Assembly: GCA_016185545.1 (NCBI GenBank)
Contig: JACPNJ010000005.1
Location: forward strand, 271,717-335,716
Origin: Candidatus Yanofskybacteria bacterium
Lineage (GTDB): Bacteria > Patescibacteriota > Minisyncoccia > 2-02-FULL-40-12 > IGHO2-01-FULL-4-A
DNA: 64,000 bases
Direction: 5' to 3'
Shown: positions 8,191 through 61,923 of the stretch, piece after piece
Position numbering within the stretch: position 1 is the first letter of the stretch
How the letters are laid out: each line of letters begins with the position of its first letter
Made by a program: the position numbers and the translations under genes
The notes under the pieces: generated by a model
Database searches by the model: none
Told to the model about the DNA's origin: nothing
The model's input: the letters and a program-made list of their open reading frames with translations, nothing else

Positions 8191-8242
8191 GGTTTTTAAC
8201 ATCTTAGATAAAAAACGTAGTCTACATAAATGATAATTAAAG

Positions 8243-16815: not shown

Positions 16816-17202
16816 TTAACTAATTAACCTGTAATATCCGCCGGCGGTGAAAAATATCGCCGCGTTAGCCGCCAGTAATATCAAATCAAATTCCCAGCCG
16901 GTTTTATCCATGGCGGCGAAAGGAATTTTCCATTTCATCATCTTCATGCCAATTGCCCCGACCATGACAATTGCCAACAAAACGGCGGCCGCTTGCATAT
17001 AAATCCCCAGAATAAGGCCTAAGCTGGAAAGACTCTCAACTATTCCTAAGAAAAATACGGCAGCTCCGGATACTCCCATCATCTGACCCATCATTTTTGC
17101 CTTCATAAGTTTCGGCAGGCCGTGATAAAGAAAGATTATTGCTACCGCCAATCTCAATATAAACAGACCAAGATTGGCGTTCAGGAAAACCGATGGATCC
17201 AT
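16816..17202 (-). CDS. DoxX-family membrane protein
   Basis: FILRLAVAIIFLYHGLPKL DoxX-type N-terminus; four TM helices. Confidence 0.7.
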   Translation of the reverse strand: MDPSVFLNANLGLFILRLAVAIIFLYHGLPKLMKAKMMGQMMGVSGAAVFFLGIVESLSSLGLILGIYMQAAAVLLAIVMVGAIGMKMMKWKIPFAAMDKTGWEFDLILLAANAAIFFTAGGYYRLIS

Positions 17203-17373
17203 TTTGTTTTATTTTAATTAAGCTGATGATTCTCTGTTTTGCCTGCCCCGTAGGGTCGTGAAGCGACTCCTTCGGGGGTTTTCAACTCAGAAAATACACC
17301 ATTCTTAATTATTAATTGATCTCGCACGAGATCGCGAGGACTCGCCCCGAGTCTCTATCTCGTGTGGGACTGA

Positions 17374-18387
17374 CTATTTGAAAAGCTCGGTTTCGGGATG
17401 AACCGCTAACCAACTAAACCAGAATCCTCCGATATACGGCAACGGTTCGCGGTTAGCGCCTATAAACATTCTAATCTCGCCCTCCGGTTTCTTTTGGATA
17501 AAAATCTGTTCACCGTTAAATATGTCTTTTGTTTCGCCGGCTTTCAGAGCTTTTGAATGATATGCTTTATATTTTCCCTTAATTTGAACCCCCAAAACAA
17601 ATTCTTTTTGGTGTAATCGTTTATCATTAAATGAGGCGCCGAATGAGACATCGTTTGATGTATAGTAATCACCATAAGGGTCATAACCGTATGACCTGAT
17701 AGTTCCGGTGTCTTTGGAAAGAACCGTTGTGTTAGGATGAAGTTTTTTCCAATCCCCGTACCTAATAACATCCGAAGGAATAACTTTTAGTTTGGTACCC
17801 GTAAATTTTCCGACAATAGCTTCTCCCAATACTTGAGACCAAAGTGATTCTTTTTTCTCATCTTCGGTTCGATTATACATTACCAGATTTGATTTCCAAA
17901 GTTTGCCGGAAGTGCCGAATTCCACGACTTGACCTTCCAATTTTCTTTCAAAAACGATACCTGTCAAACAAAGGGGGCAATACGTAATCAATACTGGTTG
18001 GTTGCCAACGGTGTCATTCACAATTTCATGCCAAACCAATATTTGATAGGGATAAAATCGGCAATCATTACCAACACAAAGTCCCGTTCCTGTTTCTTCA
18101 TCTTTCAGAAAATCCGCTTCTTCGGTAGACAAAAATTTAGGATCATCAATTGATGGAATCCCGTCTTTGGGCGGACCGCCTGACAGGATTTCATCTAATG
18201 GCACGGAATGTTTTACCCCATCGGTAATCAGAATTTGTTTTTCGGATGTTTCTAAATCCGAATTATTTGGCATAGTCTCTAAAACTTGGGTATCGCCTTT
18301 GGGTAATTTAAACTGGCGAGATTGGTTATAAAAATAAAATCCGCCAATTCCAAGCATTAACACAAGTATTATAATCCACTTTTTCAT
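17374..18387 (-). CDS. DUF3179-like exported protein
   Basis: GGPPKDGIPSIDDPKF motif and CPLC pair; signal anchor. Confidence 0.5.
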   Translation of the reverse strand: MKKWIIILVLMLGIGGFYFYNQSRQFKLPKGDTQVLETMPNNSDLETSEKQILITDGVKHSVPLDEILSGGPPKDGIPSIDDPKFLSTEEADFLKDEETGTGLCVGNDCRFYPYQILVWHEIVNDTVGNQPVLITYCPLCLTGIVFERKLEGQVVEFGTSGKLWKSNLVMYNRTEDEKKESLWSQVLGEAIVGKFTGTKLKVIPSDVIRYGDWKKLHPNTTVLSKDTGTIRSYGYDPYGDYYTSNDVSFGASFNDKRLHQKEFVLGVQIKGKYKAYHSKALKAGETKDIFNGEQIFIQKKPEGEIRMFIGANREPLPYIGGFWFSWLAVHPETELFK

Positions 18388-18749
18388 TTTACCATTTTTA
18401 TAAGTTTTATTAAATGACTGGTCAGCTTATTTTCCCGATTCAAACAATAACATATTTCTTGACCGTAGCGGCATCCGGAAACAACGCCCAAAAGTTCTAA
18501 CTTCTTTAACTGGTGAGAAACGGCGGATAAAGACGAGTTCGTCATCTCGGATATTCTGCCTACGCACGGCTCTTTTTCGGAAATCAATACCTTAAAAATA
18601 CTTATCCTGGTAGGATCCGATAGGAGGCTAAAAATCTCCGCCGGTTCCAATTGTTTGTATTGTTTAGTCATCCCGTTAGAAGTCCTACGCAATCCAAAAA
18701 TGACTCGTTTATAAGCAGGGCTATTGCTGTTATTTATTCGATATTCCAT
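18384..18749 (-). CDS. ArsR/SmtB-family transcriptional regulator
   Basis: HTH (LSDPTRISIFKVL ... VSHQLKKLELLGVV). 4-nt overlap with the upstream gene. Confidence 0.6.
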   Translation of the reverse strand: MEYRINNSNSPAYKRVIFGLRRTSNGMTKQYKQLEPAEIFSLLSDPTRISIFKVLISEKEPCVGRISEMTNSSLSAVSHQLKKLELLGVVSGCRYGQEICYCLNRENKLTSHLIKLIKMVK

Positions 18750-18755
18750 TCGTTT

Positions 18756-18787
18756 AATCCGTTAGGGGGGTGCCTTCTAACGGGATT
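18756..18787 (-). promoter_or_regulatory. CCGTTAG hairpin 6 nt upstream of arsR-like start
   Basis: aatccgttag gggggtgcctt ctaacgggatt. Confidence 0.5.
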
Positions 18788-23067: not shown

Positions 23068-23457
23068 ACTTATTATTTTAAATTATTCCTGAAAAATTGA
23101 GAAGTGTATGCAGACCACAAGCCAATTCTGTCGCTTTGGGAGATAATAATTCTCTCAAGAAAAATTATCTTGAAAAAGTCGGCTCGAACCCCCAGCTCAC
23201 GGAGCGAGCGGTTTCGGTTTCGTTCAAAAATGACTGGCAAATTCTCGCTGAATTCAATGCCGAGCGGCGACTTGTCCGCTGAAGCCCGCAGGGCGAAGGA
23301 GGAAGCCGCGAGGCAACTTCTGATGTTTGTATTACTTGGCTGCGGAGTTAGAACACTCTCAAACTCTGAAGGAGAACAAGTTCCCTACGGGGCATGCTTT
23401 TGAAATCATCTTACCAAATCTGATACACAAATCCAAAAAGCGAAATCTCCGCTGATT

Positions 23458-26142
23458 TTACGGAATTTGCAGAGGCAGAGATGGTGCAAAAACTTTTTTC
23501 TTAGAAAACTCAATGAGCAAAATTTCCACCAAGCTTATGCTAAAGATAATTGACCACTCAATTATATCCAGCGGCTGGGTAGATAAAAGTTTCTGCAGTG
23601 GCGGCAAGTAAATCGCGCCAATGAGCAACAGAAAACTTATGACCACCGCCCCGACAAGATAACGATTTGAAAAGATATCCTTTCTGAAAATAGTTCGCTT
23701 AAACGAGCGGACGCTGAACACGAAAACGAGAGAATCGAGACCCATAAGGGCAAATACTATTGTCCGTGTTTTTTGTATGTCGCCCGTCAGTTTCCAAAGG
23801 ATAAAGAAAGAAAGAAATGCCGCTATCCCCGTAATTAAAAATATGGCGGCCATCCAATGCTTCATGGGTTTATTCAGTATCGGCTCTTTTGGATTTCTGG
23901 GCTTCTCTTCCATCACTCCTTTGGTTTCCTGCTCGATGGTAAGGGCGATATCAGGGAGGCCGTCTTCCACGAGATTGATCCAAAGAATTTGCGCAGGAAG
24001 CAACGGCAGCGGAAATCCCATCGCCATGCTTCCTAAAAATAAAAAGAGTTCGGAAAAATCATCGGCAACTAAATACACGAAAACTTTTCGGATATTACCA
24101 AAGACAACTCGGCCCTGCTCGATCGCTTTTACCACGGTTTTGAAATTGTCATCCAAAATAACCAGATCAGCCACTTCTTTCGCCACATCGGTGCCGGAAC
24201 CGACCGCCACACCGATATCCGCGGCTTTCAAGGCCGGCGCGTCGTTTACCCCGTCTCCAAGCATCGCCACCACTTCCTCGTTTGCCTGAAGCGCGGCAAC
24301 GATTCTTAATTTATGACGCGGGGAAACGCGGGCATAAATGGAAAGATGTTTGGCTTTTTCTCTCAATTTCTCGTCGCTCGTAGTTTCCAACTCTTTGCCG
24401 TCAATTATGTTTTCGTCTCCGGCGTCAAGGCCGATTTCTTCGGCAATGGCTTTGGCGGTTAATCGGTGATCGCCGGTTACAATGACGGTGCGGATTCCGG
24501 CCTTTTTGGTGATTCTAATATATTCTTTGGCATCTTGGCGAAGGGGATCTTTTAGGGCGATAAATCCCACCAGCGTGAGTTCTTTTACCAAGTCGGCAAG
24601 ATTTTGGTATTTTGTGTCGGCGTTGTAATCCTTGTGAGCGCAGGCAAGCACTCGCAATCCTTTTTGAGTCAGCGATTCGAATTTTCGGATCAATTTGTCG
24701 AATTCCGAAGTGCCGAGTTTTTCTTTTCGTCCGTCAATATCCAAATCAATGGAACGCGCGATGATTTCTTCCGGCGCGCCTATGACATAGAGCGAATTTT
24801 TATATTCGCTTACGCGATGGAAAGCGGCGGCGTATTTATAGTCCGACTCAAAACTGATCCTATCGATGACCGGGTATTGTTTTTCGAGTTCGTGCTTGTT
24901 TAAGCCGGCCTGCATTCCCGCTAAAAGCAGGGCACGCTCGGTCGGTCTACCGCGCATTATCCATTCCTGCAATTCGGCTTCTGGATTTTCTACAAAGGCA
25001 TCGTTTGCCAAGGTGGCAATTTTGAGCGCGGCAATGTGGGATTCTACTCCGTTGACATTCTCTCCTTTGGCAAGTCCATTAAGACCGTCGCTCATCAATT
25101 CCCTCGTGCTCGTCAAAATATGGCTCACTTGCATCTTGCCCTCGGTTAGCGTGCCGGTTTTATCGGTACAGATAACGGTTACGCCACCCAGTGTTTCTGT
25201 CGCAGATAATTTTCTTACTAAGCCGTTTGTTTTGAAAATGCGCCGCATTCCCAACACAAGAATAACGGTTATCGCTGGAAGCAAGCCCTCCGGGATTGCC
25301 GAAACCACCAAAGCCAGAGATGCCACAAAAACCTCTGCTAAATTTTTCTCGGTGAAATAACCTTCAATGAGAATAATGAAAATAATAGAGAGAATAAAAA
25401 CGCCGAGCCAGCGCGAAAGTAAAACGATCTTTTTTTGAAGCGGGGTCTGCCGCTCTTTTGTTTCTTTGAGGAGCGAAACAACTTCGCCGATTTGCGTATT
25501 GATTCCCGTTGCAACAATAACGGCAGTTGCCCGTCCTTCTTCAATAATCGTTCCCATGAAAATCATGTTGTTTCGCTCGGGAAGCGGCGCGTCTTTCGGG
25601 AGTAAATCAACAACTTTCTTTTCAACTGCTTGGGATTCACCAGTGAGGCTGGCCTCATTTATTTTCAGACCCTTTGAATTGATAATTCGGCCATCGGCTG
25701 GCACTTTGTCGCCTGATTGTAAAAGCACGATGTCTCCCGCGACCAATTCCTCGCCGTCAATTTCTTTCTCATAACCATCCCGTAAAACTCTCGCTCGGAT
25801 TTTTACCATTCTTTTGAGAGCTAGAAGCGATTGGTTGGCTTTATTTTCTTGATAAAACCCGACGGTTGTATTAATGAGCAAAACAACAATTATAAATATA
25901 GAGTCGGAGTAATGTCCTAACGAAAAAGAAATGAGCACTGTTGTGATTAGGATATACATCAAAGGACTATTGAACTGACCCAAAAAGAGCCGTATTTTTG
26001 AATACGGTTTTTCTTGGGGAAGAGTATTGCGTCCGGATTTTTTCAGCCGCCGATTTGCTTCCGAATCGGTAAGCCCGATCTCTTTCGTTTTTAATTCAGC
26101 GACAACACTGTTCAGTGGAATCGCATACCAATTTTTACCCAT
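23458..26142 (-). CDS. P2-type cation-transporting P-type ATPase (Ca2+/Mg2+-type)
   Basis: DKTGTLT phosphorylation site, TGES, GDGVNDAPALK hinge, 10 TM. Confidence 0.9.
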   Translation of the reverse strand: MGKNWYAIPLNSVVAELKTKEIGLTDSEANRRLKKSGRNTLPQEKPYSKIRLFLGQFNSPLMYILITTVLISFSLGHYSDSIFIIVVLLINTTVGFYQENKANQSLLALKRMVKIRARVLRDGYEKEIDGEELVAGDIVLLQSGDKVPADGRIINSKGLKINEASLTGESQAVEKKVVDLLPKDAPLPERNNMIFMGTIIEEGRATAVIVATGINTQIGEVVSLLKETKERQTPLQKKIVLLSRWLGVFILSIIFIILIEGYFTEKNLAEVFVASLALVVSAIPEGLLPAITVILVLGMRRIFKTNGLVRKLSATETLGGVTVICTDKTGTLTEGKMQVSHILTSTRELMSDGLNGLAKGENVNGVESHIAALKIATLANDAFVENPEAELQEWIMRGRPTERALLLAGMQAGLNKHELEKQYPVIDRISFESDYKYAAAFHRVSEYKNSLYVIGAPEEIIARSIDLDIDGRKEKLGTSEFDKLIRKFESLTQKGLRVLACAHKDYNADTKYQNLADLVKELTLVGFIALKDPLRQDAKEYIRITKKAGIRTVIVTGDHRLTAKAIAEEIGLDAGDENIIDGKELETTSDEKLREKAKHLSIYARVSPRHKLRIVAALQANEEVVAMLGDGVNDAPALKAADIGVAVGSGTDVAKEVADLVILDDNFKTVVKAIEQGRVVFGNIRKVFVYLVADDFSELFLFLGSMAMGFPLPLLPAQILWINLVEDGLPDIALTIEQETKGVMEEKPRNPKEPILNKPMKHWMAAIFLITGIAAFLSFFILWKLTGDIQKTRTIVFALMGLDSLVFVFSVRSFKRTIFRKDIFSNRYLVGAVVISFLLLIGAIYLPPLQKLLSTQPLDIIEWSIIFSISLVEILLIEFSKKKVFAPSLPLQIP

Positions 26143-34133: not shown

Positions 34134-34149
34134 TTCGGTCTGTACGTCT

Positions 34150-34195
34150 GTACGACATCGCAAGTCGTGCAATTGCACGACTTGCGATGTCGTAC
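34150..34195. repeat. Perfect 46-bp palindrome
   Basis: gtacgacatcgcaagtcgtgcaa|ttgcacgacttgcgatgtcgtac, preceded by a gtctgtac x2 tandem. Confidence 0.9.
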
Positions 34196-34247
34196 ATATT
34201 GTCATATATATGCCGTATATTCATTCGCAATTCATCGTCAAGCCTTA

Positions 34248-34946: not shown

Positions 34947-36764
34947 TTATTTTTTTAGCATTTCCAAAAATACCTTCTGTGGTATTTCCACTTTACCCCG
35001 CTCCTTCATTTTAGCTTTCCCGCGTTTTTGTTTTTCTAGCAACTTCTTTTTGCGGGTCACATCGCCGCCATACAGGTAACCCGTAACATCTTTGCGCAAA
35101 GCGGGTATGGTTTCTCGGGCAATGATTTTACCTCCGATAGCCGCCTGTAAAGATACCGCAAACCATTGCCGCGGCAATATCTTTTTCAATTTTTCAACAA
35201 TCCGCCTGCCTTCATGATATGTCCGCTCGCGCGGCACAATTTTGGAAAACGGCTCAACTTTTTCCTCGGCGACTAAAATATCCAGCCGTACCAAATCATA
35301 AACTTGATAACGAGCCGGCTCATAGCTCATGGAGGCGTAGCCGGAACTGACACTTTTGAGCCGGTCGTAAAAGTCTGTAATTATTTCTGACAATGGCACA
35401 AGGTACTTCAATATCGCCACCTCCTTGCTTAAATAATCGGTCGATCTATACTGGCTCCGCAATTCCGACAAAAGTTTCATTAATTGTCCCATGTACGATA
35501 CTGGGCTTAAAATTTCCAAATCAACCATCGGCTCTTCTATACTCTCTATTATGCCGGGGTCGGGTAGAGCGGCGGCTGAACGCACCTTTAGAACCTCACT
35601 TTTTTTTGTAGCAACATGATATTCCACAGATGGTGTGGAAACAATAAGAGCAAGGCCGAATTCACGACGCAAACGTTCGCTGACTATTTCAATATGCAAC
35701 ATGCCGAGAAATCCCAGACGAAAACCGCGCCCTAACGCCGGCGAAGATTCGGGTTCATAAACCAGCGAAGCATCGGTAAGCTTCAATTTGCCAAGTGCGT
35801 CTTTAAGTACGTCGTAATCATCGCTAGATTCAGGATAAAAACTGGCAAACACCATAGGTTTTGGCTCTTGATAACCGGATAGAGGTTTTAAAATTTCATT
35901 TTGAGATTTGAGATTTGAGATTTGAGATTTAAATATCGTATCGCCGACTCTAATTTGCCCGGGATCTTTTAGACCCGTAGCAATATAACCAATCTCACCG
36001 GCAGACAACATCGATTCCTTTTTAAGTTGCGGCGCAAAATAGCCGACTTCCACAACATCAGAAGTGGCCCTTGAGGCAAATAACTTAATTTTCTCTCCCG
36101 CTTTTATGGAACCGCCGAAAACTCTGACAAAAGCAATAACACCCTTATAAATATCAAAGGCTGAGTCAAAAATCAGAGCACGAAATGATGAGGGTTTAGG
36201 GTCTAGGGTATAGGGTATAGACGGCGTAATTTTGGCAATTACTGCTTCAAGAACTTGTTCCACTCCTTCGCCGGTTTTGGCGGAAATTTTTAAAATATCC
36301 TCGCGCGGCATGGTTAATAAATTTACCAGTTCTTCCTCCGCTTCGGCGACTCGCGCATTCGGCAAATCAATTTTGTTAATCACTGGAATAATTGCCAGCC
36401 CTTGTTTCTGCGCCAAATGTAAATTCGCCAGTGTCTGCGCCTGCACGCCCTTAGTCGCATCCACCAACAAAATCACTCCCTCAACAGCGGCAAGTGAACG
36501 GGAAACTTCATAAGAGAAATCCACATGACCCGGAGTATCAATAAGATTAAGCGTGTAACGGTTGGCATTTAGGGCGTAGGACATTCTAACAGGCTGGAGT
36601 TTAATGGTAATCCCCCGCTCGCGTTCCAGTTCCATCTGGTCTAAAAACTGCTCGTGCATCTTCCGTTTCTCAACCGTTCCAGTTAATTCCAAAAACCTGT
36701 CGGCTAAAGTTGACTTGCCGTGATCAATGTGGGCAACGATACAGAAATTGCGGATATTTTGCAT
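34947..36764 (-). CDS. lepA: Elongation factor 4
   Basis: AHIDHGKSTL G1 motif, DTPGH, NKID, LepA C-terminal domain. Contains in-frame tandem-heptamer stretches. Confidence 0.9.
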   Translation of the reverse strand: MQNIRNFCIVAHIDHGKSTLADRFLELTGTVEKRKMHEQFLDQMELERERGITIKLQPVRMSYALNANRYTLNLIDTPGHVDFSYEVSRSLAAVEGVILLVDATKGVQAQTLANLHLAQKQGLAIIPVINKIDLPNARVAEAEEELVNLLTMPREDILKISAKTGEGVEQVLEAVIAKITPSIPYTLDPKPSSFRALIFDSAFDIYKGVIAFVRVFGGSIKAGEKIKLFASRATSDVVEVGYFAPQLKKESMLSAGEIGYIATGLKDPGQIRVGDTIFKSQISNLKSQNEILKPLSGYQEPKPMVFASFYPESSDDYDVLKDALGKLKLTDASLVYEPESSPALGRGFRLGFLGMLHIEIVSERLRREFGLALIVSTPSVEYHVATKKSEVLKVRSAAALPDPGIIESIEEPMVDLEILSPVSYMGQLMKLLSELRSQYRSTDYLSKEVAILKYLVPLSEIITDFYDRLKSVSSGYASMSYEPARYQVYDLVRLDILVAEEKVEPFSKIVPRERTYHEGRRIVEKLKKILPRQWFAVSLQAAIGGKIIARETIPALRKDVTGYLYGGDVTRKKKLLEKQKRGKAKMKERGKVEIPQKVFLEMLKK

Positions 36765-36797
36765 AAACCACAAAACCTGCCTCTCGAAAGGCAGGTT

Positions 36798-40414: not shown

Positions 40415-41480
40415 TCATGTCAACTATCTTGGTTTTGAAAATCGTTTTATCAAACTCAAGGGCGTGGGTGCGGATGGCGGCAGAATCCCATTGGGTCTGA
40501 TAGTATTGGCCTACTGCTTGGGCAAGAGCAATCTCGGTTTGTTCGTCAAAGAATATACCGGTTTTATTTTCTAAAATAGTTTCCAATGCTCCGCCGCCGT
40601 GATAGGCAATTACTGGCCGTCCGGAAGCCATTGATTCAAGCGGGACAATGCCGAAATCCTCTTCTTGCGGAAAAATCACTGCCTGCGCATGGGCATAAAG
40701 TTCCGGCATTTTGTAATCCGAAACCAAACCAAGGAAACTTATATTCGGCTTAGCCATTTTCTCCAACCGCTTGCGTTCCGGGCCATCACCGACAATTTTA
40801 AGGGGTTTCCCTATGGCATTGAATACCTTGACTGCCAAGTCAAAACGTTTATATGGCACTAGCCGACCAACCATTAAAAAATAATCTCCGGCTTCGTTAC
40901 TTATATAATATTTATGAGCATCAACCGGCGGATAGATGACTTCGGCATCGCGATTATAATATTTTTTGACTCTGGATTTCACAAAATTTGATATCGCCAT
41001 GAACTTGTCAACCCGCAATGCCGCCTCTTGGTCCCAAATACGAAGATAGGTTATGAAAAACGGCACAAGTTTTCTAATCGGCCAGGGATGGTTGAATTCT
41101 TCAATATAACGATGGCTATCATCCCAAAGAAATCTTGTCGGGGTCAGACAATAATTAATGTGTTTGGCATACGGTTTGGTTATGATGCCCTTGGCAAAAG
41201 ATGCCGATACCGACAAAACGATGTCATAATACGACAAATCAAACTGTTCAACCGCAAACGGCATAAGAAGTGAAAAAACACGGTGGTATTTGCGCGCGAA
41301 AGGAAGTTTTTGCAAAAAAGAGGTGTGTATCTCGCGGTTACAAAAAACACCGCCGGTCATACGCTCATCATAAAGCAAGGTATAAATCGGGGCATCTGGA
41401 AAAATCTCGCACAAAACCTCCAGCACTCTTTCTGCTCCCCCATACTGATTAAGATAATCATGAACCAAAGCAATTTTCAT
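40401..41480 (-). CDS. Glycosyltransferase family 4 (GT-B fold)
   Basis: N-terminal MKIALVHDYL...GGAERV and C-terminal E-x7-E type motif. Confidence 0.8.
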   Translation of the reverse strand: MKIALVHDYLNQYGGAERVLEVLCEIFPDAPIYTLLYDERMTGGVFCNREIHTSFLQKLPFARKYHRVFSLLMPFAVEQFDLSYYDIVLSVSASFAKGIITKPYAKHINYCLTPTRFLWDDSHRYIEEFNHPWPIRKLVPFFITYLRIWDQEAALRVDKFMAISNFVKSRVKKYYNRDAEVIYPPVDAHKYYISNEAGDYFLMVGRLVPYKRFDLAVKVFNAIGKPLKIVGDGPERKRLEKMAKPNISFLGLVSDYKMPELYAHAQAVIFPQEEDFGIVPLESMASGRPVIAYHGGGALETILENKTGIFFDEQTEIALAQAVGQYYQTQWDSAAIRTHALEFDKTIFKTKIVDMIANE

Positions 41481-41586
41481 CCCGTTAGAAGTGGCAATAG
41501 CGACATATAAACTAAACTTACAATCGCTGTTTTAACTTTTATTAAATAAAATTTGATTCGCGAACCCGTTAGGGCTACTTCTAACG
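41481..41586 (-). promoter_or_regulatory. CCCGTTAG leader element abutting the GT4 start codon
   Basis: cccgttagaagtggc at the ATG; distal aacccgttagggctacttctaacg. Confidence 0.6.
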
Positions 41587-41664
41587 AAATTCGTTGCTCA
41601 AAGCGTACCAAATTTATAAGCAAAAACAAAACCGGTTTACTGACTGACGAAATATTAATATTTA

Positions 41665-43086: not shown

Positions 43087-43121
43087 GCCACTAAAAATCG
43101 CGTGTTGCGCGATTTTTAGTG

Positions 43122-43670
43122 GCTTGGTAAATCTATAAGCCGAATTCTGTCACCCTTCGCTCGGCTATGCCGAGCTTCGGACGGACAAGTATTTGTGCTT
43201 GTCCTCCGTAGCTTTAGCGTAGGATGGATGATTATTTATCTGGGCCAATTATCGCTAATTAGCTCTAGCGTACGAACTTTTCGGGGTATCGCATTGCTGT
43301 GATACGACGCTGTACTTGCACTAGGCAGGGTTTAGCGCGACACCCATGTTGCCATGGGGCGTTCCCGTTCGGGAACTTTTCACCCGCAGTCCTCGGACTT
43401 GCGCCAAAGGAGCTCGGAATAGTTTCTGTGCCACTTTCCCTAAGCTTCGATTAGTAGCTCTTCTCTTAAGAGGAAGAAGTACCAACCTTATACTCGGTGG
43501 CCGTTAGCCACTGCCTTGCTGACGCAATCACTAATCACTAACCTCCAATCACCAATTTTGTTAGTAATTGACGACTAGCAGTTGGTGATTGCGTCAGCGG
43601 TGTTCGGACTTTCCTCTACCTTGCTCTTTCCAAAGAAAGGGCTGGGCAGAAATCACCCGATTTACCAAGC
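43122..43670 (-). ncRNA. rnpB: RNase P RNA (bacterial), unusually long (~550 nt)
   Basis: P1 pairing GCUUGGUAAAUC / GAUUUACCAAGC. P4 strands GAGGAAAGUCCGAACACC and ACAGAAUUCGGCUUA. GGGUGAAAAG J11/12-like segment. Long extra helix at 43500-43605. Confidence 0.7.
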
Positions 43671-45110: not shown

Positions 45111-46367
45111 CTAATTTTTATAATAATCAAGAACCTCTAACCCAGGCAGCCTGTTGCCGGCTAAAAATTCTAACATTGCCCCTCCGCCGGTTGAGACGAA
45201 ACTATAGCGGTCAAGTAAATCCAGCTTGTCTACTGCGGCAACAGTATCCCCGCCGCCAACAATAGATTTCGCCGCCGAAGCCACTGCTTTGGCAATGTCG
45301 CGGGTACCCTCGGCAAAAACTTCCACTTCTGATAATCCCATCGGCCCGTTCCAGATTACCATCTTGGCCGTTTTTATAATTTCGGCGTAATGTTTTGCCG
45401 TCTCCGGTCCGATATCAAGAATCAGATGACTGGAATCAATATTTTCTATCGGAGAAGTCTCTGCGCCAGAATCGCCAGTTTTATCTTCTGAAATCAAAAC
45501 ATCTTCCGGCAATATTATTTTCTCACTTTCCACGTCAAGCAAAAATTCATTATCAACCATTGACGCACCAACATTTATTCCCCGAGCCTTAAAAAAATTA
45601 TTGGCAACCGCACCGCCAATCAGGATTTTTTCCGCTTTATCCAAGAAATTTTTGATTACCGGCAATTTGGTTGAGATTTTAGCGCCACCGAGAACTAAAA
45701 CCTTACCGTCAACCGGCGCCTCCAGCGCCCGTCTAAGACTTTCGGTTTCTTTTTTTATTAAAAATCCGGCAAAAGAGGGTAGGTGTCTGGTTATTGCCAC
45801 AACGGATGCATGATTGCGATGCATTACCGCAAAAGCGTCATTTACATAATAGTCAAAACCGTTCGACAAGCTCACGGCGAGTTCCTCATTATTTTGAATC
45901 TCGCGCGAATTTTGGCGAATATTATCCAGAAGTAAAAGTGGGCCAACTCCAAAAAGTTTATCAACCCCGTACAAGGCAGAGGCACGCTGCGTGCCCTCGC
46001 GGCCTCGTTCGGGGTTAATTCCGTCCAATTCAGAATGCGGCACCAATGTAAGTGTTTGCCCCAAAATTTCACCCAACTCTTCAACAATCGGGCCAAAACT
46101 TGCCCCCGAAACATCATGCCCCAAGTGGCCCACCAATAAAACTTTAGCACCGAAGCTAATCAAATAATCAATCGTCTCCTTTTGCGCTTTGATTCTGAAA
46201 TTATCACCGATCTTGGTTAGCGATTGGCGACCTGCCCCGTAGGGAGACAAAGTCTCTCCTTCAGGGTTGGTAGTTGGTGATTGCGTCAGCGGCACGTCAA
46301 AATCAACCCGCAACAGGATTTTTTTGTTATTAAGCTCTTCTTTTTTTAATTCGTTAATATATTTCAT
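45111..46367 (-). CDS. pgk: Phosphoglycerate kinase
   Basis: RVDFDVPL, GHLG, GGGD and hinge motifs. Carries an in-frame ~20-aa insertion near the N-terminus. Confidence 0.9.
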   Translation of the reverse strand: MKYINELKKEELNNKKILLRVDFDVPLTQSPTTNPEGETLSPYGAGRQSLTKIGDNFRIKAQKETIDYLISFGAKVLLVGHLGHDVSGASFGPIVEELGEILGQTLTLVPHSELDGINPERGREGTQRASALYGVDKLFGVGPLLLLDNIRQNSREIQNNEELAVSLSNGFDYYVNDAFAVMHRNHASVVAITRHLPSFAGFLIKKETESLRRALEAPVDGKVLVLGGAKISTKLPVIKNFLDKAEKILIGGAVANNFFKARGINVGASMVDNEFLLDVESEKIILPEDVLISEDKTGDSGAETSPIENIDSSHLILDIGPETAKHYAEIIKTAKMVIWNGPMGLSEVEVFAEGTRDIAKAVASAAKSIVGGGDTVAAVDKLDLLDRYSFVSTGGGAMLEFLAGNRLPGLEVLDYYKN

Positions 46368-46515
46368 CCCGTTAGAAGTAGCTGCTTGCCCCGCAATTCG
46401 CCAGAGGCGATGGTTCGGGGCTGCGCAGTTTTACACACAAGTTGCGGCCGCACAACAAGCTTAAGATTATTTACAAATTATATTTGCAAACCCGTTAGGG
46501 CTACTTCTAACGGGA
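46368..46515 (-). promoter_or_regulatory. CCCGTTAG leader element filling the tpiA-pgk spacer, abutting the pgk start codon
   Basis: cccgttagaagtagc at the ATG. Distal cccgttagggctacttctaacggga can pair either locally or with the ATG-proximal copy (15-bp perfect). Inner hairpin gccccg...cggggc. Confidence 0.6.
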
Positions 46516-46519
46516 TTAA

Positions 46520-47326
46520 TCACAAACTAGAAACAATTTTTAAAACATCTCCAAATTCTTTTTTTCTCAAACTGGCGCCACCGATAACTGCGCCGAAGAT
46601 TTCCGGATATTTGAGGAAATCAGCAACATTTTTTTTGTTAATTGACCCTCCGTATAAAAACCTGAAACCTGAAACCTGCCCGGCCTTCGCAGCCGAAGCT
46701 ACTTCGGCGGAGTAGGCAAGCCCGAAACCTAATAACTCTTGAATAATTTTTATCGCTTCAAGCGTATTTTCGGGAGTATCTGGCTCCGCACCAGGTGTTG
46801 TGCTTATCGCCCAAACCGGTTCATAAGTAATCAAAACTTTGCCAACTTGATCGGCGGTTAAACCGGCTAAATCGGCGGTGAGTTGGGTTTCAAGGACTTG
46901 CTTGCGATCATCGCCACGGTTACGTTCACCCACCAAAAGCACCGGCGTAACTCCGGCTCCAAGCGCTGCCCCAATTTTCTTGTTTATTACCTCATCCGTT
47001 TCGCCAATTTTGTATCGCCTATCCGAGTGGCCGACAAGCACATGGGTTACACCAAAGTTCTTGAGCATATCAATCGATACTTCTCCCGTGTACGGCCCTG
47101 ATTTTTCCCAAAATAAGTCCTGACCACCCAAACTGATAGATGATGACTGACGGTTGACGGCTGGAACTTGCCTTGCGAGTTCTTCAAGGTAAACAAATGG
47201 CGGACAAATCACTACTTTCAGATTCTGATGCTTTGACGCTTCAGCAACCGAAAATTTAAAAAGTTCCAGGGCTTCCTCAAGATTAACGGGATTCATTTTC
47301 CAATTGGCAATAATAATCTTATTCAT
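46520..47326 (-). CDS. tpiA: Triosephosphate isomerase
   Basis: ANWKMN, GHSDRR, EPVWAI, YGGS motifs. In-frame palindromic insertion before YGGS. Confidence 0.9.
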   Translation of the reverse strand: MNKIIIANWKMNPVNLEEALELFKFSVAEASKHQNLKVVICPPFVYLEELARQVPAVNRQSSSISLGGQDLFWEKSGPYTGEVSIDMLKNFGVTHVLVGHSDRRYKIGETDEVINKKIGAALGAGVTPVLLVGERNRGDDRKQVLETQLTADLAGLTADQVGKVLITYEPVWAISTTPGAEPDTPENTLEAIKIIQELLGFGLAYSAEVASAAKAGQVSGFRFLYGGSINKKNVADFLKYPEIFGAVIGGASLRKKEFGDVLKIVSSL

Positions 47327-47945: not shown

Positions 47946-48970
47946 TCCGTAGGATTAACTTCAATTGGATCTGTTTCACGCAATAATTTAGCCGCTTCAT
48001 CCGGATCAATAATATTCACGTCAATCCCGCTGCCCAACTCAAAAGCCCCGAATGTGGAAATCTTGGGTAAAACTTCGACGTGCCAAGTATAAAAATCGTG
48101 TACGTCTATCACTGTGTCTTCAAGCGGAGCAGTATGTACGAAAAAATTATAATCAGGATTTTTGAGAGCTAGCTGTATTTTTTTAAGAATCAACAGTAAA
48201 ATTTCGCCAAGATACACAAGCTGCTCCTCTGGCATTTTCTCAAAATGGGCATGACTTTCCTGCGGAAAAATTCTCACTTCGTAAGACGTCTTGGAAACGA
48301 AAGGACAAAAAGCGATAAAATACTTGTTTTCATAGACAATCCTTTTTCTCTCTTTCCTTTCCCAGTCAATCATCACATTATATATTCTTTTTTTATATTC
48401 ACGATAAAATTTTTCAGAACCGTTAATACTTCTTTTAACATCGGGAGGCAAGACTGGAATTGATATAATCTGCGAATGGGGATGCGACATGCTGGCTCCG
48501 GCGCGAGAACCATGATTATGGAAAATTAAAGCGTATTTACCATATGCGCCGCCGTCAGTCATAGTTCGGTATCTTTCCTGATAAACCTTTAATGCTTCAG
48601 CCAACTCTTCTTTGGAAAACTCGTGCAAAAATCTGTCATGATTCCTGAATATGACAACTTCATGCCTGCCCTTGGCTTCTTGAACATTAAAGGGGCCGAT
48701 AGACTCCGGCAGACTGGCTTTGCCTTCCAAAACTGCCGGGTATTTATTCTTTACCACCTTTATTGCCCAATCATTACGTTCTTTATTTAAGTATTCAGCC
48801 ACCACAATATTGCCGTATTTTTCCGGGTTCTCAAAGGGGCACTTGCTCTTAGGCAATGTTTTAGTTTTCGGTTTTTCTTGTTTAACCTGTTCCGGCCTTT
48901 GGGCTCGGCCCGTAGCAAAAAGCACCCATTCGCCGGAAACCAGGTCTTCTCTAAACTCGTTAACCACCAC
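47942..48970 (-). CDS. Galactose-1-phosphate uridylyltransferase-like (GalT/HIT superfamily)
   Basis: HNHGSRAGASMSHPHSQI HxHxQ-type active site, two half-barrel halves. Confidence 0.6.
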   Translation of the reverse strand: MVVNEFREDLVSGEWVLFATGRAQRPEQVKQEKPKTKTLPKSKCPFENPEKYGNIVVAEYLNKERNDWAIKVVKNKYPAVLEGKASLPESIGPFNVQEAKGRHEVVIFRNHDRFLHEFSKEELAEALKVYQERYRTMTDGGAYGKYALIFHNHGSRAGASMSHPHSQIISIPVLPPDVKRSINGSEKFYREYKKRIYNVMIDWERKERKRIVYENKYFIAFCPFVSKTSYEVRIFPQESHAHFEKMPEEQLVYLGEILLLILKKIQLALKNPDYNFFVHTAPLEDTVIDVHDFYTWHVEVLPKISTFGAFELGSGIDVNIIDPDEAAKLLRETDPIEVNPTE

Positions 48971-49031
48971 TAGTCACTAGCCACTAGCCACTAGCCACTA
49001 GTAATTTAACTAGTCGCTAGGCACTAGTCCG
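48971..49031. repeat. Heptamer-arm spacer element (cactagc)n
   Basis: cactagtcactagccactagccactagccactag + taatttaa + ctagtcgctaggcactagtccgctaggcac. Confidence 0.85.
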
Positions 49032-49793
49032 CTAGGCACTATACTTGTAAGTCCACAGATTCCACCTTACCTGCAATACCTCAAACAGCATTTTAATCAT
49101 CCCGCTTAATTTGACCTTACTTTCCGTATCATTCACCCATCGTATCGGCGCTTCTTCTATTTTAAAACCCAGTTTGAGGGCAATCGCCAAAATCTCCACG
49201 TCAAACGCCCAACGGAAAATTGTCTGTTTTTGAAATACCGCCTCGGTGGCTTTGCGTGAAAAACATTTGAATCCTGCCTGTGAATCTTTCACGCCAAGCG
49301 GTACGAGAGTATGCACGATCAGACGAAAAATTCCACCGAGAAAATCTCTGATCCATGGCTGCTTAACCGCTATATCAGCCCCGGCAATTCTACGGGAACC
49401 AATCACAATATCAGATCCTTGTGAAAAATATGGAAGAAAATTCTCAATTTGATCAATGGTTGTAGAATTATCCGCGTCCATAAATAAGCGGTAATCCCCC
49501 TGCGCCTCCAACATTCCCCGCCGCACCGCCCAGCCCTTGCCGTGATTTTCTTTGTCATCAATTATTTTCAGATTTGGGATTTGCCCGGCCTTCGTAGCCG
49601 AAGCTGCTACTTCATCGGGGTAAGTGGATTTGAGATTTGAAACAACGCCAACGGTATTGTCCTTTGATCCGTCACTAACCACAATGATTTCATAATCATA
49701 AGATTGCCGTGACAAATACTCGTGCACGCTCAAAAGCGTCTTTTCAATGCGTTTTTCCTCATTATAGGCAGGAATTATTACAGAAATATACAT
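49032..49793 (-). CDS. Family 2 glycosyltransferase (dolichol-phosphate mannose synthase-like)
   Basis: VIIPAYNEE, IIVVSDGS, DADN motifs. In-frame insertion PDEVAASATKAGQIP. Confidence 0.8.
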   Translation of the reverse strand: MYISVIIPAYNEEKRIEKTLLSVHEYLSRQSYDYEIIVVSDGSKDNTVGVVSNLKSTYPDEVAASATKAGQIPNLKIIDDKENHGKGWAVRRGMLEAQGDYRLFMDADNSTTIDQIENFLPYFSQGSDIVIGSRRIAGADIAVKQPWIRDFLGGIFRLIVHTLVPLGVKDSQAGFKCFSRKATEAVFQKQTIFRWAFDVEILAIALKLGFKIEEAPIRWVNDTESKVKLSGMIKMLFEVLQVRWNLWTYKYSA

Positions 49794-53248: not shown

Positions 53249-53313
53249 TATTCAGGTTACAGGTTACAGGTTACAGGTTCAAAAAATTAAACCTAGCACC
53301 TGACACCTGACAC
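53249..53313. repeat. Heptamer-arm palindromic spacer element (caggtta)n ... (cctgaca)n, copy A
   Basis: (caggtta)3 + ttcaaaaaattaaacc + tagcacctgacacctgacacctag. Near-identical to 57614-57692. Confidence 0.9.
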
Positions 53314-53820
53314 CTAGTTTTTGAGCTTGCTCAACGCTCCTATCGTTGCTCTTGCTATATTTATCTTATTTCCGGTTCTTTTTATAAGCTTTGCGGAAAT
53401 ATTTTCAATACCAGAAAGTTTAGCCACTACACGTACCGCTCCTCCAGCCTTAACTCCGTTGCCAACTGGCGCGGGCTTAAGTAAAACCACCGCGCTGCCG
53501 TATTTATATTCAATTATGTGTGGTATTGTGCCGTTTTTTATCGGCACTGTGACCATGTTTTTACGTGCTTGATGTGTCGCTTTTTGCATTGACTGAGCCA
53601 CGTCATGACCTTGAGCAACTCCAACTCCTACCCTGCCCTTACCATCACCTATAGCAATAGTGGCACGGAAACTGAATCGCTTGCCACCCTTGGTTACACG
53701 AGTTACCCTAGCAATATCCAAAACTTTGGAATCAAATTCCGATTTTTCTTTGGGTGTCCCCCGATCTCTGCCGAAGCCTCTTCTGCCTCCGGTTTTTTTA
53801 TTATTTTTTTGTTCCTCCAT
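53314..53820 (-). CDS. rpsE: 30S ribosomal protein S5
   Basis: S5 dsRBD plus C-terminal domain. Confidence 0.9.
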   Translation of the reverse strand: MEEQKNNKKTGGRRGFGRDRGTPKEKSEFDSKVLDIARVTRVTKGGKRFSFRATIAIGDGKGRVGVGVAQGHDVAQSMQKATHQARKNMVTVPIKNGTIPHIIEYKYGSAVVLLKPAPVGNGVKAGGAVRVVAKLSGIENISAKLIKRTGNKINIARATIGALSKLKN

Positions 53821-54398: not shown

Positions 54399-54470
54399 GC
54401 TAAAGTTTCTAGTTTCTAGTTTTTAGTTTCTAGTGAATTTTACTAGCAACTAGAACCTAGAACCTAGCAA
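54399..54470. repeat. Heptamer-arm spacer element (tagtttc)4 ... (ctagaac)n
   Basis: Tandem 7-mers followed by an imperfectly complementary tandem arm; loop gtgaatttta. Confidence 0.9.
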
Positions 54471-55025
54471 CTATCCTGCCGTTGCTACCGCCTTCTTGCC
54501 CGCCTTTCTTAAAATAACTTCGTTCTTGTATTTAATGCCGGAACCCTTATACGGTTCCGGCGGTTTAGCCGCCCTTATTAAAGCCGCGACATGACCGACT
54601 TTTTCTTTATCCGGTCCAGTTACTTTTATAACATTTTTCTCCACCCGGAAAGTCACTCCTTCAGGCGCTTTTACCGAAACTGGATTGGTATAACCCAGAC
54701 TTAATTCAATGGAATCTTCCTTTACTTGAGCCTTGAAACCCACTCCATTAAACTCCAGTACCTTTTCAAAACCGCCAAAAACACCCTTTATCATTGTTGC
54801 CGCCAGCGCCCTGCCCAATCCCCAAAATTTAGAAGTTTCTTTGCTGGCATCAATGCCTTGTTTTAATCCAATAACAACGGCACCATCTTCCACTCTGGCA
54901 ATTAAAACATCCGGAAGAATTTTTTCCAGTTCGCCCTTGGGACCCTTGGCGTGAATTTTTTGACCGTCAATTTCCACTTCCACACCATCCGGAATTTTGA
55001 TTAGTTTTTTACCTATTCTAGACAT
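54471..55025 (-). CDS. rplF: 50S ribosomal protein L6
   Basis: MSRIGKKLIKIP; two L6 repeats. Confidence 0.9.
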   Translation of the reverse strand: MSRIGKKLIKIPDGVEVEIDGQKIHAKGPKGELEKILPDVLIARVEDGAVVIGLKQGIDASKETSKFWGLGRALAATMIKGVFGGFEKVLEFNGVGFKAQVKEDSIELSLGYTNPVSVKAPEGVTFRVEKNVIKVTGPDKEKVGHVAALIRAAKPPEPYKGSGIKYKNEVILRKAGKKAVATAG

Positions 55026-55179
55026 GCAAATTTGTCCAATCGGACAAGCGTAATCGCGTAGTCCGATTGGGTAACAGATTTAGCACCCCGCCCTCTAAGC
55101 ACTTTAATAGCTTAGAGGGCGGGGTAACTAACTGTTACCATGCTCGGCTCGCTTTGCTCGCCTGCGCGTGGACAGCTAT
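55026..55179. repeat. GC-rich multi-hairpin spacer element, copy 1 (paralog at 59432-59583)
   Basis: ccaatcggac..gtccgattgg; accccgccctctaagc...gcttagagggcggggt; ggtaactaactgttacc; atgctcggctcgc tail. Confidence 0.9.
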
Positions 55180-55578: not shown

Positions 55579-55687
55579 GTTAGTTTATCAAGTTTATAAA
55601 GTTTTAAAGTTTACAAAGTTAGATTCTGAATAACTTTACAAACTTTATGAACTTTATGAACTTTATGAACTTTTTACTGGTCGTGGT
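55579..55687. repeat. Heptamer-arm spacer element (aagttta)n ... (gaacttt(at))n
   Basis: caagtttataaagttttaaagtttacaaagtt ... aactttacaaactttatgaactttatgaactttatgaacttt. Confidence 0.9.
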
Positions 55688-57613: not shown

Positions 57614-57692
57614 TTAATCAGGTTACAGGTTACAGGTTACAGGTTACAGGTTAAAAAATTAAACCTAGCACCTGACACCCGAAACCTGACAC
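57614..57692. repeat. Heptamer-arm palindromic spacer element, copy B
   Basis: (caggtta)4 + taaaaaattaaacc + tagcacctgacacccgaaacctgacacc. Confidence 0.9.
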
Positions 57693-57941
57693 CTATACTT
57701 TTCCTATGATTTGCCATCTCTTGTCTTTCGACATCGGCTTTGTTTCCCGAATAACAACTTTATCCCCAATATGATACTCCCCCTTCTCATCATGCGCCTT
57801 AAATCGTTTGGTAATTTTGTAATATTTCTTGTATTTTGGGTGCTTCTTTAATCTTATAACCGAAACCACCACAGTTTTGGTCATTTTGTCCGACACTACG
57901 ATTCCCTTTAATTGTCTTATCTTTTTGATCAATTGTTTCAT
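57693..57941 (-). CDS. rpsQ: 30S ribosomal protein S17
   Basis: S17 OB fold; GIVVSDKMTKT. Confidence 0.9.
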   Translation of the reverse strand: MKQLIKKIRQLKGIVVSDKMTKTVVVSVIRLKKHPKYKKYYKITKRFKAHDEKGEYHIGDKVVIRETKPMSKDKRWQIIGKV

Positions 57942-58711: not shown

Positions 58712-58798
58712 ACTAGCTGATAGCTGATAGCTGATAGCTGATAGCTTTTTGAAGTCAAGCTATAACCCATCACCTAAAAACTATAACCTTTGCGATTG
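58712..58798. repeat. Heptamer-arm spacer element (tagctga)4 ...
   Basis: ctagctgatagctgatagctgatagctgatagc + loop + gctataacc...ctataacc. Confidence 0.85.
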
Positions 58799-59431
58799 TT
58801 AAAATCGCAAACCTTTATATATCCATACCTTAATTCCTACCGTTCCGTATGTCGTGTATGCGGTTGATTTTGCAAAATCTATGTCCGCCCTCAGTGTCTG
58901 CAACGGCAAGCTTCCTTGTTCAAGATGCTCCGTTCTCGCTATGTCATTGCCGTCCAGCCGTCCACCAACTGTAACTTTAGCGCCTTTTACATCACGGTTG
59001 GATATGATTTTAGCAAGTGATTGCTTTAACACGCGACGGTAAGGTAATCTTTTTTCTATCTGCTCAGCCATTTGTTCAGCAACTATTCTGGCTGAAGTTT
59101 CCGGATTTTTAAACTCCTGTATATCCAACCGAATCGCTGTTTTTCTCTTAATAAGTTTGATAACTTCGGCTTTTAAATCTTCGATGCCCGTACCGCCGCG
59201 GCCTATAATCAAACCCGGCCTTGCGGTGCGTATGGTAATGGCTAGAACATCCGGACTTCTTTCAATCTCTATATCATCTACACTCATGTTTTTGAGTTTT
59301 TTATCTAGAAATTTTCTGATTTCAACATCTTCTTTTAAAAATTCCGGATAATTTCTAACCTTAAACCAGCGGGATTTCCAATCCTTGTTTATCGAAACTC
59401 TTAATGATGTTGGGGAAATTTTCTGTCCCAT
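58799..59431 (-). CDS. rpsC: 30S ribosomal protein S3
   Basis: MGQKISPTSLR; KH domain. Confidence 0.9.
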   Translation of the reverse strand: MGQKISPTSLRVSINKDWKSRWFKVRNYPEFLKEDVEIRKFLDKKLKNMSVDDIEIERSPDVLAITIRTARPGLIIGRGGTGIEDLKAEVIKLIKRKTAIRLDIQEFKNPETSARIVAEQMAEQIEKRLPYRRVLKQSLAKIISNRDVKGAKVTVGGRLDGNDIARTEHLEQGSLPLQTLRADIDFAKSTAYTTYGTVGIKVWIYKGLRF

Positions 59432-59583
59432 GCAAATTTGTCCAATCGGACAAGCGTAATCGCGTAGTCCGATTGGGTAACAGATTTAGCACCCCGCCCT
59501 CTATGCACTTTAATAGCTTAGAGGGCGGGGTAACTAACTGTTACCGTACTCGTTCGCGTTGCTCACTGCGCTCGGACATTTAA
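59432..59583. repeat. GC-rich multi-hairpin spacer element, copy 2
   Basis: ~110 nt nearly identical to 55026-55135 (caaatttgtccaatcggacaagcgtaatcgcgtagtccgattgggtaacagatttagcaccccgccctct...). Confidence 0.9.
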
Positions 59584-60102: not shown

Positions 60103-60173
60103 TTATTCAGGTTACAGGTTACAGGTTACAGGTTACAGTTTTTAACTGTCCACTGATCACTGGAAACTGGTCA
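60103..60173. repeat. Heptamer-arm spacer element sharing the (caggtta)3 left arm with a different right arm
   Basis: caggttacaggttacaggttacagtttttaactgtccactgatcactggaaactggtcac. Confidence 0.85.
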
Positions 60174-61850: not shown

Positions 61851-61923
61851 GGTCAGTTTCTAGTTTACAGCTTACAGTTTACAGTGAATTCTTAACTGAA
61901 AACTGACAACTGTAAACTGAAAA
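61851..61923. repeat. Heptamer-arm spacer element (tttacag)n ... (ctgNaaa)n
   Basis: gtttctagtttacagcttacagtttacagtgaattcttaactgaaaactgacaactgtaaactgaaaac. Confidence 0.9.

Follow-up and report, generated by a model that had tools for sequence, protein, structure and literature searches.

The gene for phosphoglycerate kinase (PGK) in a 64,000-nt stretch of a contig from an ultra-small bacterium, Candidatus Yanofskybacteria of the Patescibacteria (JACPNJ010000005.1, assembly GCA_016185545.1; hereafter the window) carries extra coding sequence that probably records two independent in-frame insertions, of 36 nt and 54 nt, of a non-autonomous hairpin repeat. On the same reading, a 21-nt match between this gene and the gene for RNase P RNA (rnpB) would reflect a separate event. 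The window protein is 100% identical to an NCBI-named PGK from a Candidatus Yanofskybacteria metagenome-assembled genome, matches PF00162 and is 418 aa long, compared with about 374-390 aa in its relatives. At the site of interest its open reading frame (ORF) translates as VDFDVPLTQSPTTNPEGETLSPYGAGRQSLTKIGDNFRIK, and the peptide string that spans the insert is NPEGETLSPYGAG. We aligned the protein with 22 relatives and compared codons at the orthologous loci L207, L005, L001 and L003, where labels of this form denote the loci and contigs compared, that is, PGK loci of relatives and metagenome contigs. The coordinates of all principal features are collected in Table 1.

Two in-frame hairpin inserts in the phosphoglycerate kinase gene

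The extra protein encoded near 46230-46265 amounts to ~21 residues in two layers: an inner layer of 12 aa that is unique to the window genome, and an outer layer of about 10 aa that is common with orthologues (TQSPTTN..RQSLT). An initial reading made from the DNA letters and ORF translations alone (the sequence-only reading) had described a single segment of 17-20 extra residues; the presence of the segment stands, its size does not, as the inserted element itself is 36 nt. Specifically, the inner layer reads (A)CCTG-CCCCGTAGGG-AGAC-AAA-GTCT-CTCCTTCAGG(G) on the forward strand, which is CCTG followed by a 32-nt hairpin (-17.9 kcal/mol, z = -2.6), and the hairpin that had been noticed at the outset, GAGAC-AAA-GTCTC, is the apex of this longer structure. 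This DNA is missing from L207, L005 and L001, the three closest tract-sharing orthologues, in which the flanking codons align and read ...ACC/GCT AAC|CGC/AAC CAA... at the site where the window has an additional 36 nt.

A second in-frame copy, which the sequence-only reading missed, having seen one insertion, lies further along the gene in the same orientation and reading frame as the first and has the foot CCCCGTA...TTCGGGG in common with it. This 54-nt copy folds at -33.8 kcal/mol (z = -4.9, equalled by 0/200 shuffles), is unique to the window and is missing at the aligned site from L207, L003 and L001; the empty site in L207 reads GGG GTT|CAT AAA CTT. Comparison with the empty sites in orthologues shows insertion of the hairpin element into PGK, and it reveals no target-site duplication at either position, with a junction ambiguity of at most 1-3 nt. 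Membership in the miniature inverted-repeat transposable elements was considered and set aside, the element being a single short hairpin and lacking such a duplication.

The outer layer has a different history. Its DNA is a run of heptanucleotide repeats (CAAYNNC) that is not present in L003 and most remaining relatives, and because homologous codons occur in L207, L005 and L001, we read this layer from the codon comparison as an older, ancestral loop of the subclade. The orthologue alignment thus divides the segment, since sharing among orthologues had been named as the sign of an ancestral loop: it applies to the outer ~10 aa, and the inner 36 nt have empty sites. It is very improbable that the whole extra segment is an ancestral, lineage-specific loop grown by local slippage with no mobile element involved. 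The homologous codons (TQxPTxN..RQxLT), the heptanucleotide tandem array and the varying length of this site in many Yanofskybacteria PGKs speak for such slippage, and on the codon comparison it holds for the outer roughly 10 residues; for the 36 nt and 54 nt it is refuted, as these are not in the closest orthologues and share their conserved foot with window copies and with more than 118 metagenomic loci.

With respect to protein structure, an AlphaFold (AF2) model built on the alignment of relatives has a mean predicted local distance difference test score (pLDDT) of 87.7 and a predicted TM-score (pTM) of 0.86, and matches solved PGKs with TM-scores of 0.76-0.85, normalised to target (Foldseek). 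Values of pLDDT below 50 are found solely at residues 33-48 and 118-133, which are the two insertions, and in the 22-relative alignment both sites differ in length among Yanofskybacteria PGKs and are thus indel hot spots. The model supports the view that both inserts are low-confidence, disordered loops on an intact PGK fold; the tolerated surface loop that had been expected is borne out to the extent of a disordered loop predicted on a folded enzyme. The 12-18 residues that the inserts add to the protein (N-P-E-G...P-Y-G-A) probably have no function of their own and are passengers.

Table 1. Location of the principal features within the window
Feature	Position	Strand	Basis or context
Phosphoglycerate kinase coding sequence, 418 aa	45111..46367	-	ORF, protein identity and PF00162
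Hairpin element copy 1, 36-nt in-frame insertion, P35-G46, PEGETLSPYGAG	46230..46265	-	alignment, fold, family match
Hairpin element copy 2, longer apex, 54-nt in-frame insertion, N118-V135, NPERGREGTQRASALYGV	45963..46016	-	
Outer layer, 5' half, T28-N34, CAATCAC CAACTAC CAAC	46266..46286	-	homologous codons in L207, L005, L001
Outer layer, 3' half, R47-T51, CGCCAATCGCTAACC	46215..46229	-	homologous codons in L207, L005, L001
21-nt stretch identical to rnpB; Pro-Leu codons of VDFxVPL and first outer-tract heptads	46272..46292	-	codon map
Bacterial type A RNase P RNA gene (549 nt)	43120..43668	-	Rfam RF00010, 367-position model
Extended hairpin, P5.1 position of rnpB (between P5 and P7/P8)	43508..43604	-	insertion relative to model
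Intergenic copy, CCTG-CCCCGTAGGG-TCGT-GAAG-CGA-CTCCTTCGGGG	17242..17277	+	between ORFs 16816..17202 and 17374..18387
Degenerate copy, opposite orientation, CATG-CCCCGTAGGG-AAC-TT-GTT-CTCCTTCAGAG	23362..23396	-	about 60 nt downstream of 894-aa ORF 23458..26142
Distant relative, CTTG-CCCCG...TTCGGGG, without GTAG	46385..46424	+	nested in 152-nt PGK-TIM spacer element

A dispersed hairpin family in the window and in metagenomes

The PGK copies belong to a family with the pattern (YYTG)CCCCGTAGGG, then a variable, covarying stem-loop, then CTCCTTCRGGG, in which the GTAG-containing foot is conserved and the apex is free. The window holds three clear copies, one degenerate copy and one distant relative, or about 1 per 16 kb, and the three clean hairpins have an identical foot. 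The 14-mer CCTGCCCCGTAGGG recurs at 46231 and 17242, as had been observed from the letters, and a further copy with one mismatch lies at 23383 on the reverse strand; these 3 matches compare with 0.11 expected, and 0/100 shuffles reach 3. In terms of folding, the copy at 17242-17277 (-19.1 kcal/mol, z = -3.0) and the distant relative (-20.4 kcal/mol, z = -3.5; missing from the other two copies of its spacer element) form clear hairpins, and the degenerate copy folds weakly (z = -1.1). The context of the degenerate copy recurs in L090, L124, L138, L143, L191 and L196 among the metagenome matches listed, and a permissive Rfam search together with ARAGORN found no RNA at 22.0-24.0 kb around it. 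Nor does the hairpin correspond to a known RNA family: at Rfam gathering thresholds the window yields rnpB and three tRNAs only. The attC, k-turn and sarcin-ricin motifs were dropped as candidates, their sequences, judged by eye, not fitting.

Scanning public metagenome contigs with the pattern CCCCGTAGGG-N6-30-CTCCTTCRGGG gave at least 120 matches, and 118 unique copies are present among the matches listed, to which the counts that follow refer. The same pattern has 0 matches in 2.9 million viral contigs, a figure of use only as a chance control, and no copy was found in 1.3 Mb around PGK in 86 other genomes, mostly of the candidate phyla radiation (CPR) and few of them close relatives. The distribution is thus patchy, and the family is abundant but confined to certain lineages. 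Copies are 29-47 nt long (mode 32), and their apices vary yet always pair, as in TCGC-GAA-GCGA, AAAC-GAA-GTTT, AGC-TT-GCT and others. Across the alignment, 97.8% of apex cells are paired compared with 86.6% in shuffles (0/500 shuffles reach this value) and 51-68% in slid controls, and three pairs covary through compensatory changes. Immediately 5' of the clamp, most copies have CCTG, CTTG or CATG, and the others TTTA. GTAG is invariant at positions 5-8; it belonged to the search pattern, and its place is within the CCCC/GGGG clamp, not at the outer end.

Copies of the element are found both between genes and within many unrelated housekeeping genes of Patescibacteria. Tabulating coding and non-coding locations, as the sequence-only reading had suggested for the genome, places 46 of the 118 unique copies (~40%) inside ORFs with at least 40 codons on either side, and 19 of these 46 use the strand and frame seen in PGK, which gives xPEG[VE]..PYG[AV]. 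Ten hosts were identified by Pfam: DnaG, GatB, YceG, cofactor-independent PGM (iPGM), enolase, TsaD, UvrC, MnmA, FolD and RsmH. Among relatives of the GatB host, which bear names such as Pacebacteria, Parcubacteria and Gribaldobacteria, several are without an insert at that site. Inside ORFs the CCCCGAAGGAG...CCCTACGGGG strand is the sense strand in 38 instances versus 15, and intergenic copies show a sense-strand bias in the same direction relative to flanking genes. Copies often lie just downstream of genes, and the intergenic ones cluster with other GC hairpins.

Insertion of this kind is not restricted to one sequence family. A second Yanofskybacteria PGK (L209; GCA_041643255.1, 649-1920) has a clamp-type element of another sort inserted in frame twice, 54 nt each time (DPVKS...FDGV), with the form (G/A)ACCCCGTCAAA...TTTGACGGGGTT. 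Its outer stem, ACCCCGTCAAA/TTTGACGGGGT, is the same in both copies, and the two inner hairpins vary from one copy to the other through compensatory changes; a third hairpin insert in this gene is KLSRLCRGSSIALQSGE. In this group of bacteria, in-frame hairpin insertion is therefore general. Strongly 7-periodic flanks accompany about 5-7% of the listed copies and 0% of control positions, an association and no rule, and heptad flanks were accordingly set aside as a general property of the element. Hairpin elements stand in phase within a heptanucleotide array in L157/L168 (MnmA), L154, L127 and L181; the MnmA array reads ATTCTTA ATTCGTA (CCTG-hairpin) ATTCATA ATTCGTA ATTCGTG and is like those of the window PGK and TIM.

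As to how such an element might spread, it may move as a single-stranded DNA hairpin, with a Y1 (IS200/RayT-type) tyrosine transposase acting in trans and reading the GTAG-bearing foot, as proposed for repetitive extragenic palindromic (REP) elements. A genic copy would survive only where it has a length divisible by three, is free of stop codons and sits in a tolerant surface loop; the conserved foot with its free apex would then be a likely recognition site for a putative enzyme. We infer this route by analogy. Genes with the Pfam Y1_Tnp domain (IS200-like) are present on four element-bearing contigs and in a Yanofskybacteria relative (L109, L117, L123, L141, L211).

Several observations weigh against a mobile element. 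The hairpins that flank these Y1_Tnp genes are of other kinds, so the link to a RayT-type enzyme is one of analogy only, and tblastn found no transposase gene, Y1 included, within the 64-kb window. GTAG lies within an extended stem and not at its outer edge, the second PGK copy resembles the family at the foot alone, and the distribution among genomes is patchy, as described above. Moreover, the foot is identical across lineages whose proteins are merely 30-65% identical, which is unusual for REP families and could reflect selection on the structure itself. This last point bears on a view that we regard as doubtful, namely that the hairpins are selected structural modules (protein-binding sites or signals for RNA stability or processing) spread by recombination or recurrent origin, with genic copies owing their presence to a function (for example translational pausing or an extra peptide loop) and not to selfish transposition. 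Foot identity among distant relatives, the transcribed-strand bias inside and between genes, the favoured reading frame, an apex that varies freely yet always pairs, and the clustering of copies with other GC hairpins between genes are all in keeping with such modules. They fit poorly with the fact that unrelated enzymes are hit at non-homologous, indel-tolerant sites, that the inserts model as disordered, that the distribution among CPR genomes is patchy and that no known RNA family matches. Insertion of a dispersed, non-autonomous hairpin repeat is the reading we retain for both PGK inserts.

The RNase P RNA helix and its match to the kinase gene

The rnpB gene scores 121.5 bits against RF00010 (gathering score 100, E = 1e-36), with model coverage 1-367, and is of bacterial type A. 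The 21-mer AGTTGGTGATTGCGTCAGCGG occurs at exactly 46272-46292 and 43580-43600, the latter inside the RNase P RNA, as the sequence-only reading had stated, and these are its sole two sites in the window (0.00 expected). Uniqueness to these two sites had been named as a reason to consider chance identity or assembly chimerism; the uniqueness holds within the window, and both explanations are nonetheless excluded. An artefact or chimera at shared k-mers would suit the fact that 21 nt is a common assembler k-mer length, but it is scarcely credible: both genes are intact and colinear on either side of the 21-mer, both inserts are in frame, in-frame copies recur in independent assemblies, and an analogous 28-mer is identical in the independent samples L005 and L006.

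The proposal that 14-mer, hairpin and 21-mer form one element did not survive the codon map, on which the 21-mer lies outside the hairpin element, starting in the conserved Pro-Leu codons and extending into the old heptad tract. A composite of the three motifs inserted in PGK, rnpB and the doxX/DUF3179 spacer would explain their occurrence within 62 nt in PGK, but we consider it highly improbable, as the 21-mer includes conserved Pro-Leu and orthologous tract codons, the rnpB copy is without the hairpin foot and the copy at 17242 is without the 21-mer. In addition, rnpB aligns with PGK only after removal of the hairpin, tail identity being 13/18 and 11/18 without the element and 7/18 and 9/18 with it.

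Within rnpB, a 97-nt hairpin occupies the P5.1 position; the 21-mer (43580-43600) forms its 5' arm, and the complement of the 21-mer lies at 43518-43531. This hairpin folds at -43.3 kcal/mol (z = -7.6), and 137 nt here constitute an insertion relative to the model (cmscan); in relatives the corresponding helix measures 27-93 nt and has an unrelated sequence. Heptad periodicity is seen in both arms, and once the 36-nt element is taken out of the PGK tract they run colinear with it, identity to PGK being 34/43 (5' arm) and 32/43 (complement of the 3' arm; tails p about 1e-4 versus shuffles). This gives the helix the look of a palindromic, inverted copy of the PGK heptad tract, from a donor 2.7 kb away. 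PGK would be the donor because the tract is vertically inherited in PGK while the rnpB extension is lineage-specific, and the copy probably predates entry of the hairpin into PGK, since it spans the insertion site without the hairpin. One result weakens this picture: a 7-nt register shift gives equal tail identity, so the colinearity past the perfect 21-mer partly reflects shared heptad periodicity. CCGCT is shared at the left junction in rnpB, and the rnpB of L210 natively has CACCGCT; the copy would most likely have arisen by microhomology-primed template switching into a tolerant RNA helix.

A similar arrangement is found in L005 (8285-8312 / 10570-10597) and in the independent sample L006, where 28 nt of native PGK codons, encoding the conserved KGLALSLSKG, appear in perfect antisense in the P5.1-position rnpB helix and the copy adjoins native microhomology. 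Altogether, in the 25 genomes where no more than 10 kb separates rnpB from PGK, sharing between the two genes gives two strong cases, and in both of these PGK is the only gene in the locus that matches rnpB. Weaker cases are a 22/23 sense copy of the same PGK segment as in L005, located in another rnpB helix of L003 (14707-14729), and a marginal 17-nt match in L210. A conserved antisense relationship between the two genes was set aside, there being two strong cases in 25 genomes. The related idea that the identity is functional, with a guide-like segment of RNase P RNA pairing with PGK mRNA (14 perfect bp in the window, 28 bp in L005), is in our estimate quite improbable. In its favour, the same rnpB helix holds sequence derived from PGK in two genomes independently, in one of them as antisense, and rnpB matches no further gene in 64 kb or 19 kb; the PGK segments, however, differ between the cases, strong cases number only two in the 25 genomes, the antisense arm in the window is sequestered in a stable helix (-43 kcal/mol), and the junction microhomology fits a mutational origin.

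Template switching at quasipalindromes or microhomology is an established replication-error mechanism. The rnpB copies are like its products in that a short patch templated nearby is bounded by a few bases of microhomology and creates or perfects an inverted repeat. They differ in that the donor is 1.5-2.7 kb away in another gene and that the same gene pair is involved in two genomes, and the mechanism is here deduced from junction sequences only. Helix extensions are known in RNase P RNAs of the CPR, where the RNA is far longer than the model and needs manual refolding (Lui et al. 2021, PMC8172020). For the extension described here the source can be named, a neighbouring PGK coding segment, whereas no such origin is given in that paper. 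A PGK-derived rnpB extension would be one of the few RNA expansion segments whose origin is readable from sequence. The window rnpB also has a second large expansion near its 3' end (43145-43235), with about 60 nt between model positions 335 and 336 that form GC-rich hairpins.

Neighbouring repeats and likeness to known elements

Among the tandem repeats of the window, heptads predominate. Between 21797 and 62629, about 28/65 tandem-repeat rows have period 7 (TRF), with examples at 48968-49041, 53253-53315, 54404-54473, 57619-57694, 58714-58746, 60108-60138 and 61854-61929, and many intergenic hairpins have arms made of 7-nt repeats, or in one instance of 9-nt repeats (55582-55673). No description of heptanucleotide repeats in CPR was found in the literature searched. 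Perfect in-frame arrays, (TTTGAGA)x4.4 at 35900-35930 and (AGGGTAT)x4.3 at 36191-36220, occur in a 608-aa GTPase (ORF 34947..36773, reverse strand), which we take from its motifs to be LepA-like, and encode 7-aa repeats such as KSQISNLKSQNEIL.

The gene next to PGK, for triosephosphate isomerase (TIM; 46520..47326, reverse strand), has a window-specific in-frame insert, LAYSAEVASAAKAGQVSGFRF at 46658-46720, composed of (AAACCTG)x3 and a GC hairpin beginning CCTGCCC; in L001, TIM bears an insert of another kind elsewhere in the gene. The two genes are adjacent or overlapping in L003, L005, L207 and L210-L212; the window has between them (46363-46519) a 152-nt element with 17-20-bp inverted termini (CCCGTTAGAAGTAGC), one of which holds the PGK start codon, and two shorter copies of this element lie directly upstream of other genes (41475-41590 and 18668-18780). 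At the same junction, L001/L002 (RIFCSPHIGHO2_01_FULL_44_17) have a reverse transcriptase (RVT_1) and a bAvd gene at 7021-8686, a pair read as a diversity-generating retroelement, so that this junction looks like a hot spot for insertion. Elsewhere in the window, a 48-nt perfect palindrome between two genes (34149-34196) shares 17 nt (ACGACTTGCGATGTCGT) with hairpins flanking a Y1_Tnp (RayT-like) gene in metagenome contig L141. A 117-nt intergenic repeat that holds the strong hairpin ACCCCGCCCTCTAAGC...GCTTAGAGGGCGGGGT is present in two nearly identical copies, 55023-55139 and 59429-59545, which agree without a mismatch over stretches of 75 and 41 nt.

Unexplained lineage-specific insertions abound in the proteins and structural RNAs of CPR/Patescibacteria, and this locus would provide one concrete source: a dispersed hairpin repeat that enters essential genes in frame (PGK, enolase, iPGM, GatB, DnaG and UvrC). 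A simple pattern such as (YYTG)CCCCGTAG..TTCGGGG allows these inserts, which otherwise distort alignments, phylogenies and structure predictions, to be annotated. A broader and rather unlikely idea is that some Patescibacteria have an active sequence-writing process, involving single-stranded DNA or template switching, that could also copy short pieces of genes into their neighbours, as from PGK into rnpB in two genomes. If true, it would seed clamp-type hairpins and heptanucleotide arrays in surface loops of essential enzymes and in structural-RNA helices, and would in general drive the lineage-specific inserts in proteins and the extended RNA helices that mark CPR genomes; as a sub-case, the PGK-derived rnpB helix might have gained a role in pairing with PGK mRNA.

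In-frame palindromic repeats are already known as a kind, both as Rickettsia palindromic elements (RPEs) and as intragenic REPs. The hairpin family described here is apparently unreported in CPR: neither the family, nor its wide occurrence in Patescibacteria, nor the design of conserved foot and variable apex was found in the searchable literature. RPEs were reportedly described by Ogata and colleagues in 2000. The family resembles them in being made up of short palindromic repeats that lie between genes and, as with 46/118 listed copies, in frame inside unrelated housekeeping genes, in favouring one reading frame, in hitting some genes twice and probably in placing its peptides at tolerant, surface-type positions. 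The sequence-only reading had proposed such a resemblance, and the empty sites, the many unrelated hosts and the favoured frame speak, by analogy, in its favour. Judged by tag and length, there is no sequence relationship: R. conorii RPEs end in CGTC (PMC3733652), whereas the tag here is GTAG, and the consensus CCCCGTAGGG..CTCCTTCGGGG spans 32-54 nt compared with about 100-150 nt for RPE-1. The hosts here are free-living or episymbiotic Patescibacteria and not Rickettsiales, and the element has a foot conserved across distant lineages and a variable apex.

GTAG-tagged REP elements and their RAYT (Y1) transposases offer the second comparison (PMC3733652, PMC3337134). GTAG-type REPs also occur inside genes, and RPEs are related to REPs in kind (PMC3733652). 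Like a REP, a 20-40-nt GC-rich imperfect palindrome with GTAG by its stem, the present element is a palindrome of 29-47 nt among the listed copies, with folding energies of -18 to -34 kcal/mol and covariation. Among the listed copies it is also mostly extragenic, often just downstream of genes, found in hairpin clusters and at times intragenic; it leaves no target-site duplication, and IS200-like Y1 transposase genes occur in the same organisms. It differs in that GTAG is enclosed by an extra CCCC/GGGG clamp, that no RAYT gene flanked by the hairpin repeat was found in the 64-kb window or the Y1_Tnp contigs, and that ~40% of listed copies lie inside ORFs, whereas REPs are mostly intergenic (PMC3733652). 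The phyla listed for REPs are Proteobacteria, Cyanobacteria, Chloroflexi and the PVC group, and CPR is not among them (PMC3733652). Taken together, these comparisons support, by analogy, an element that works like RPEs and REPs; it would extend Rickettsia-type "selfish DNA inside proteins" to a very different and very large uncultured radiation.

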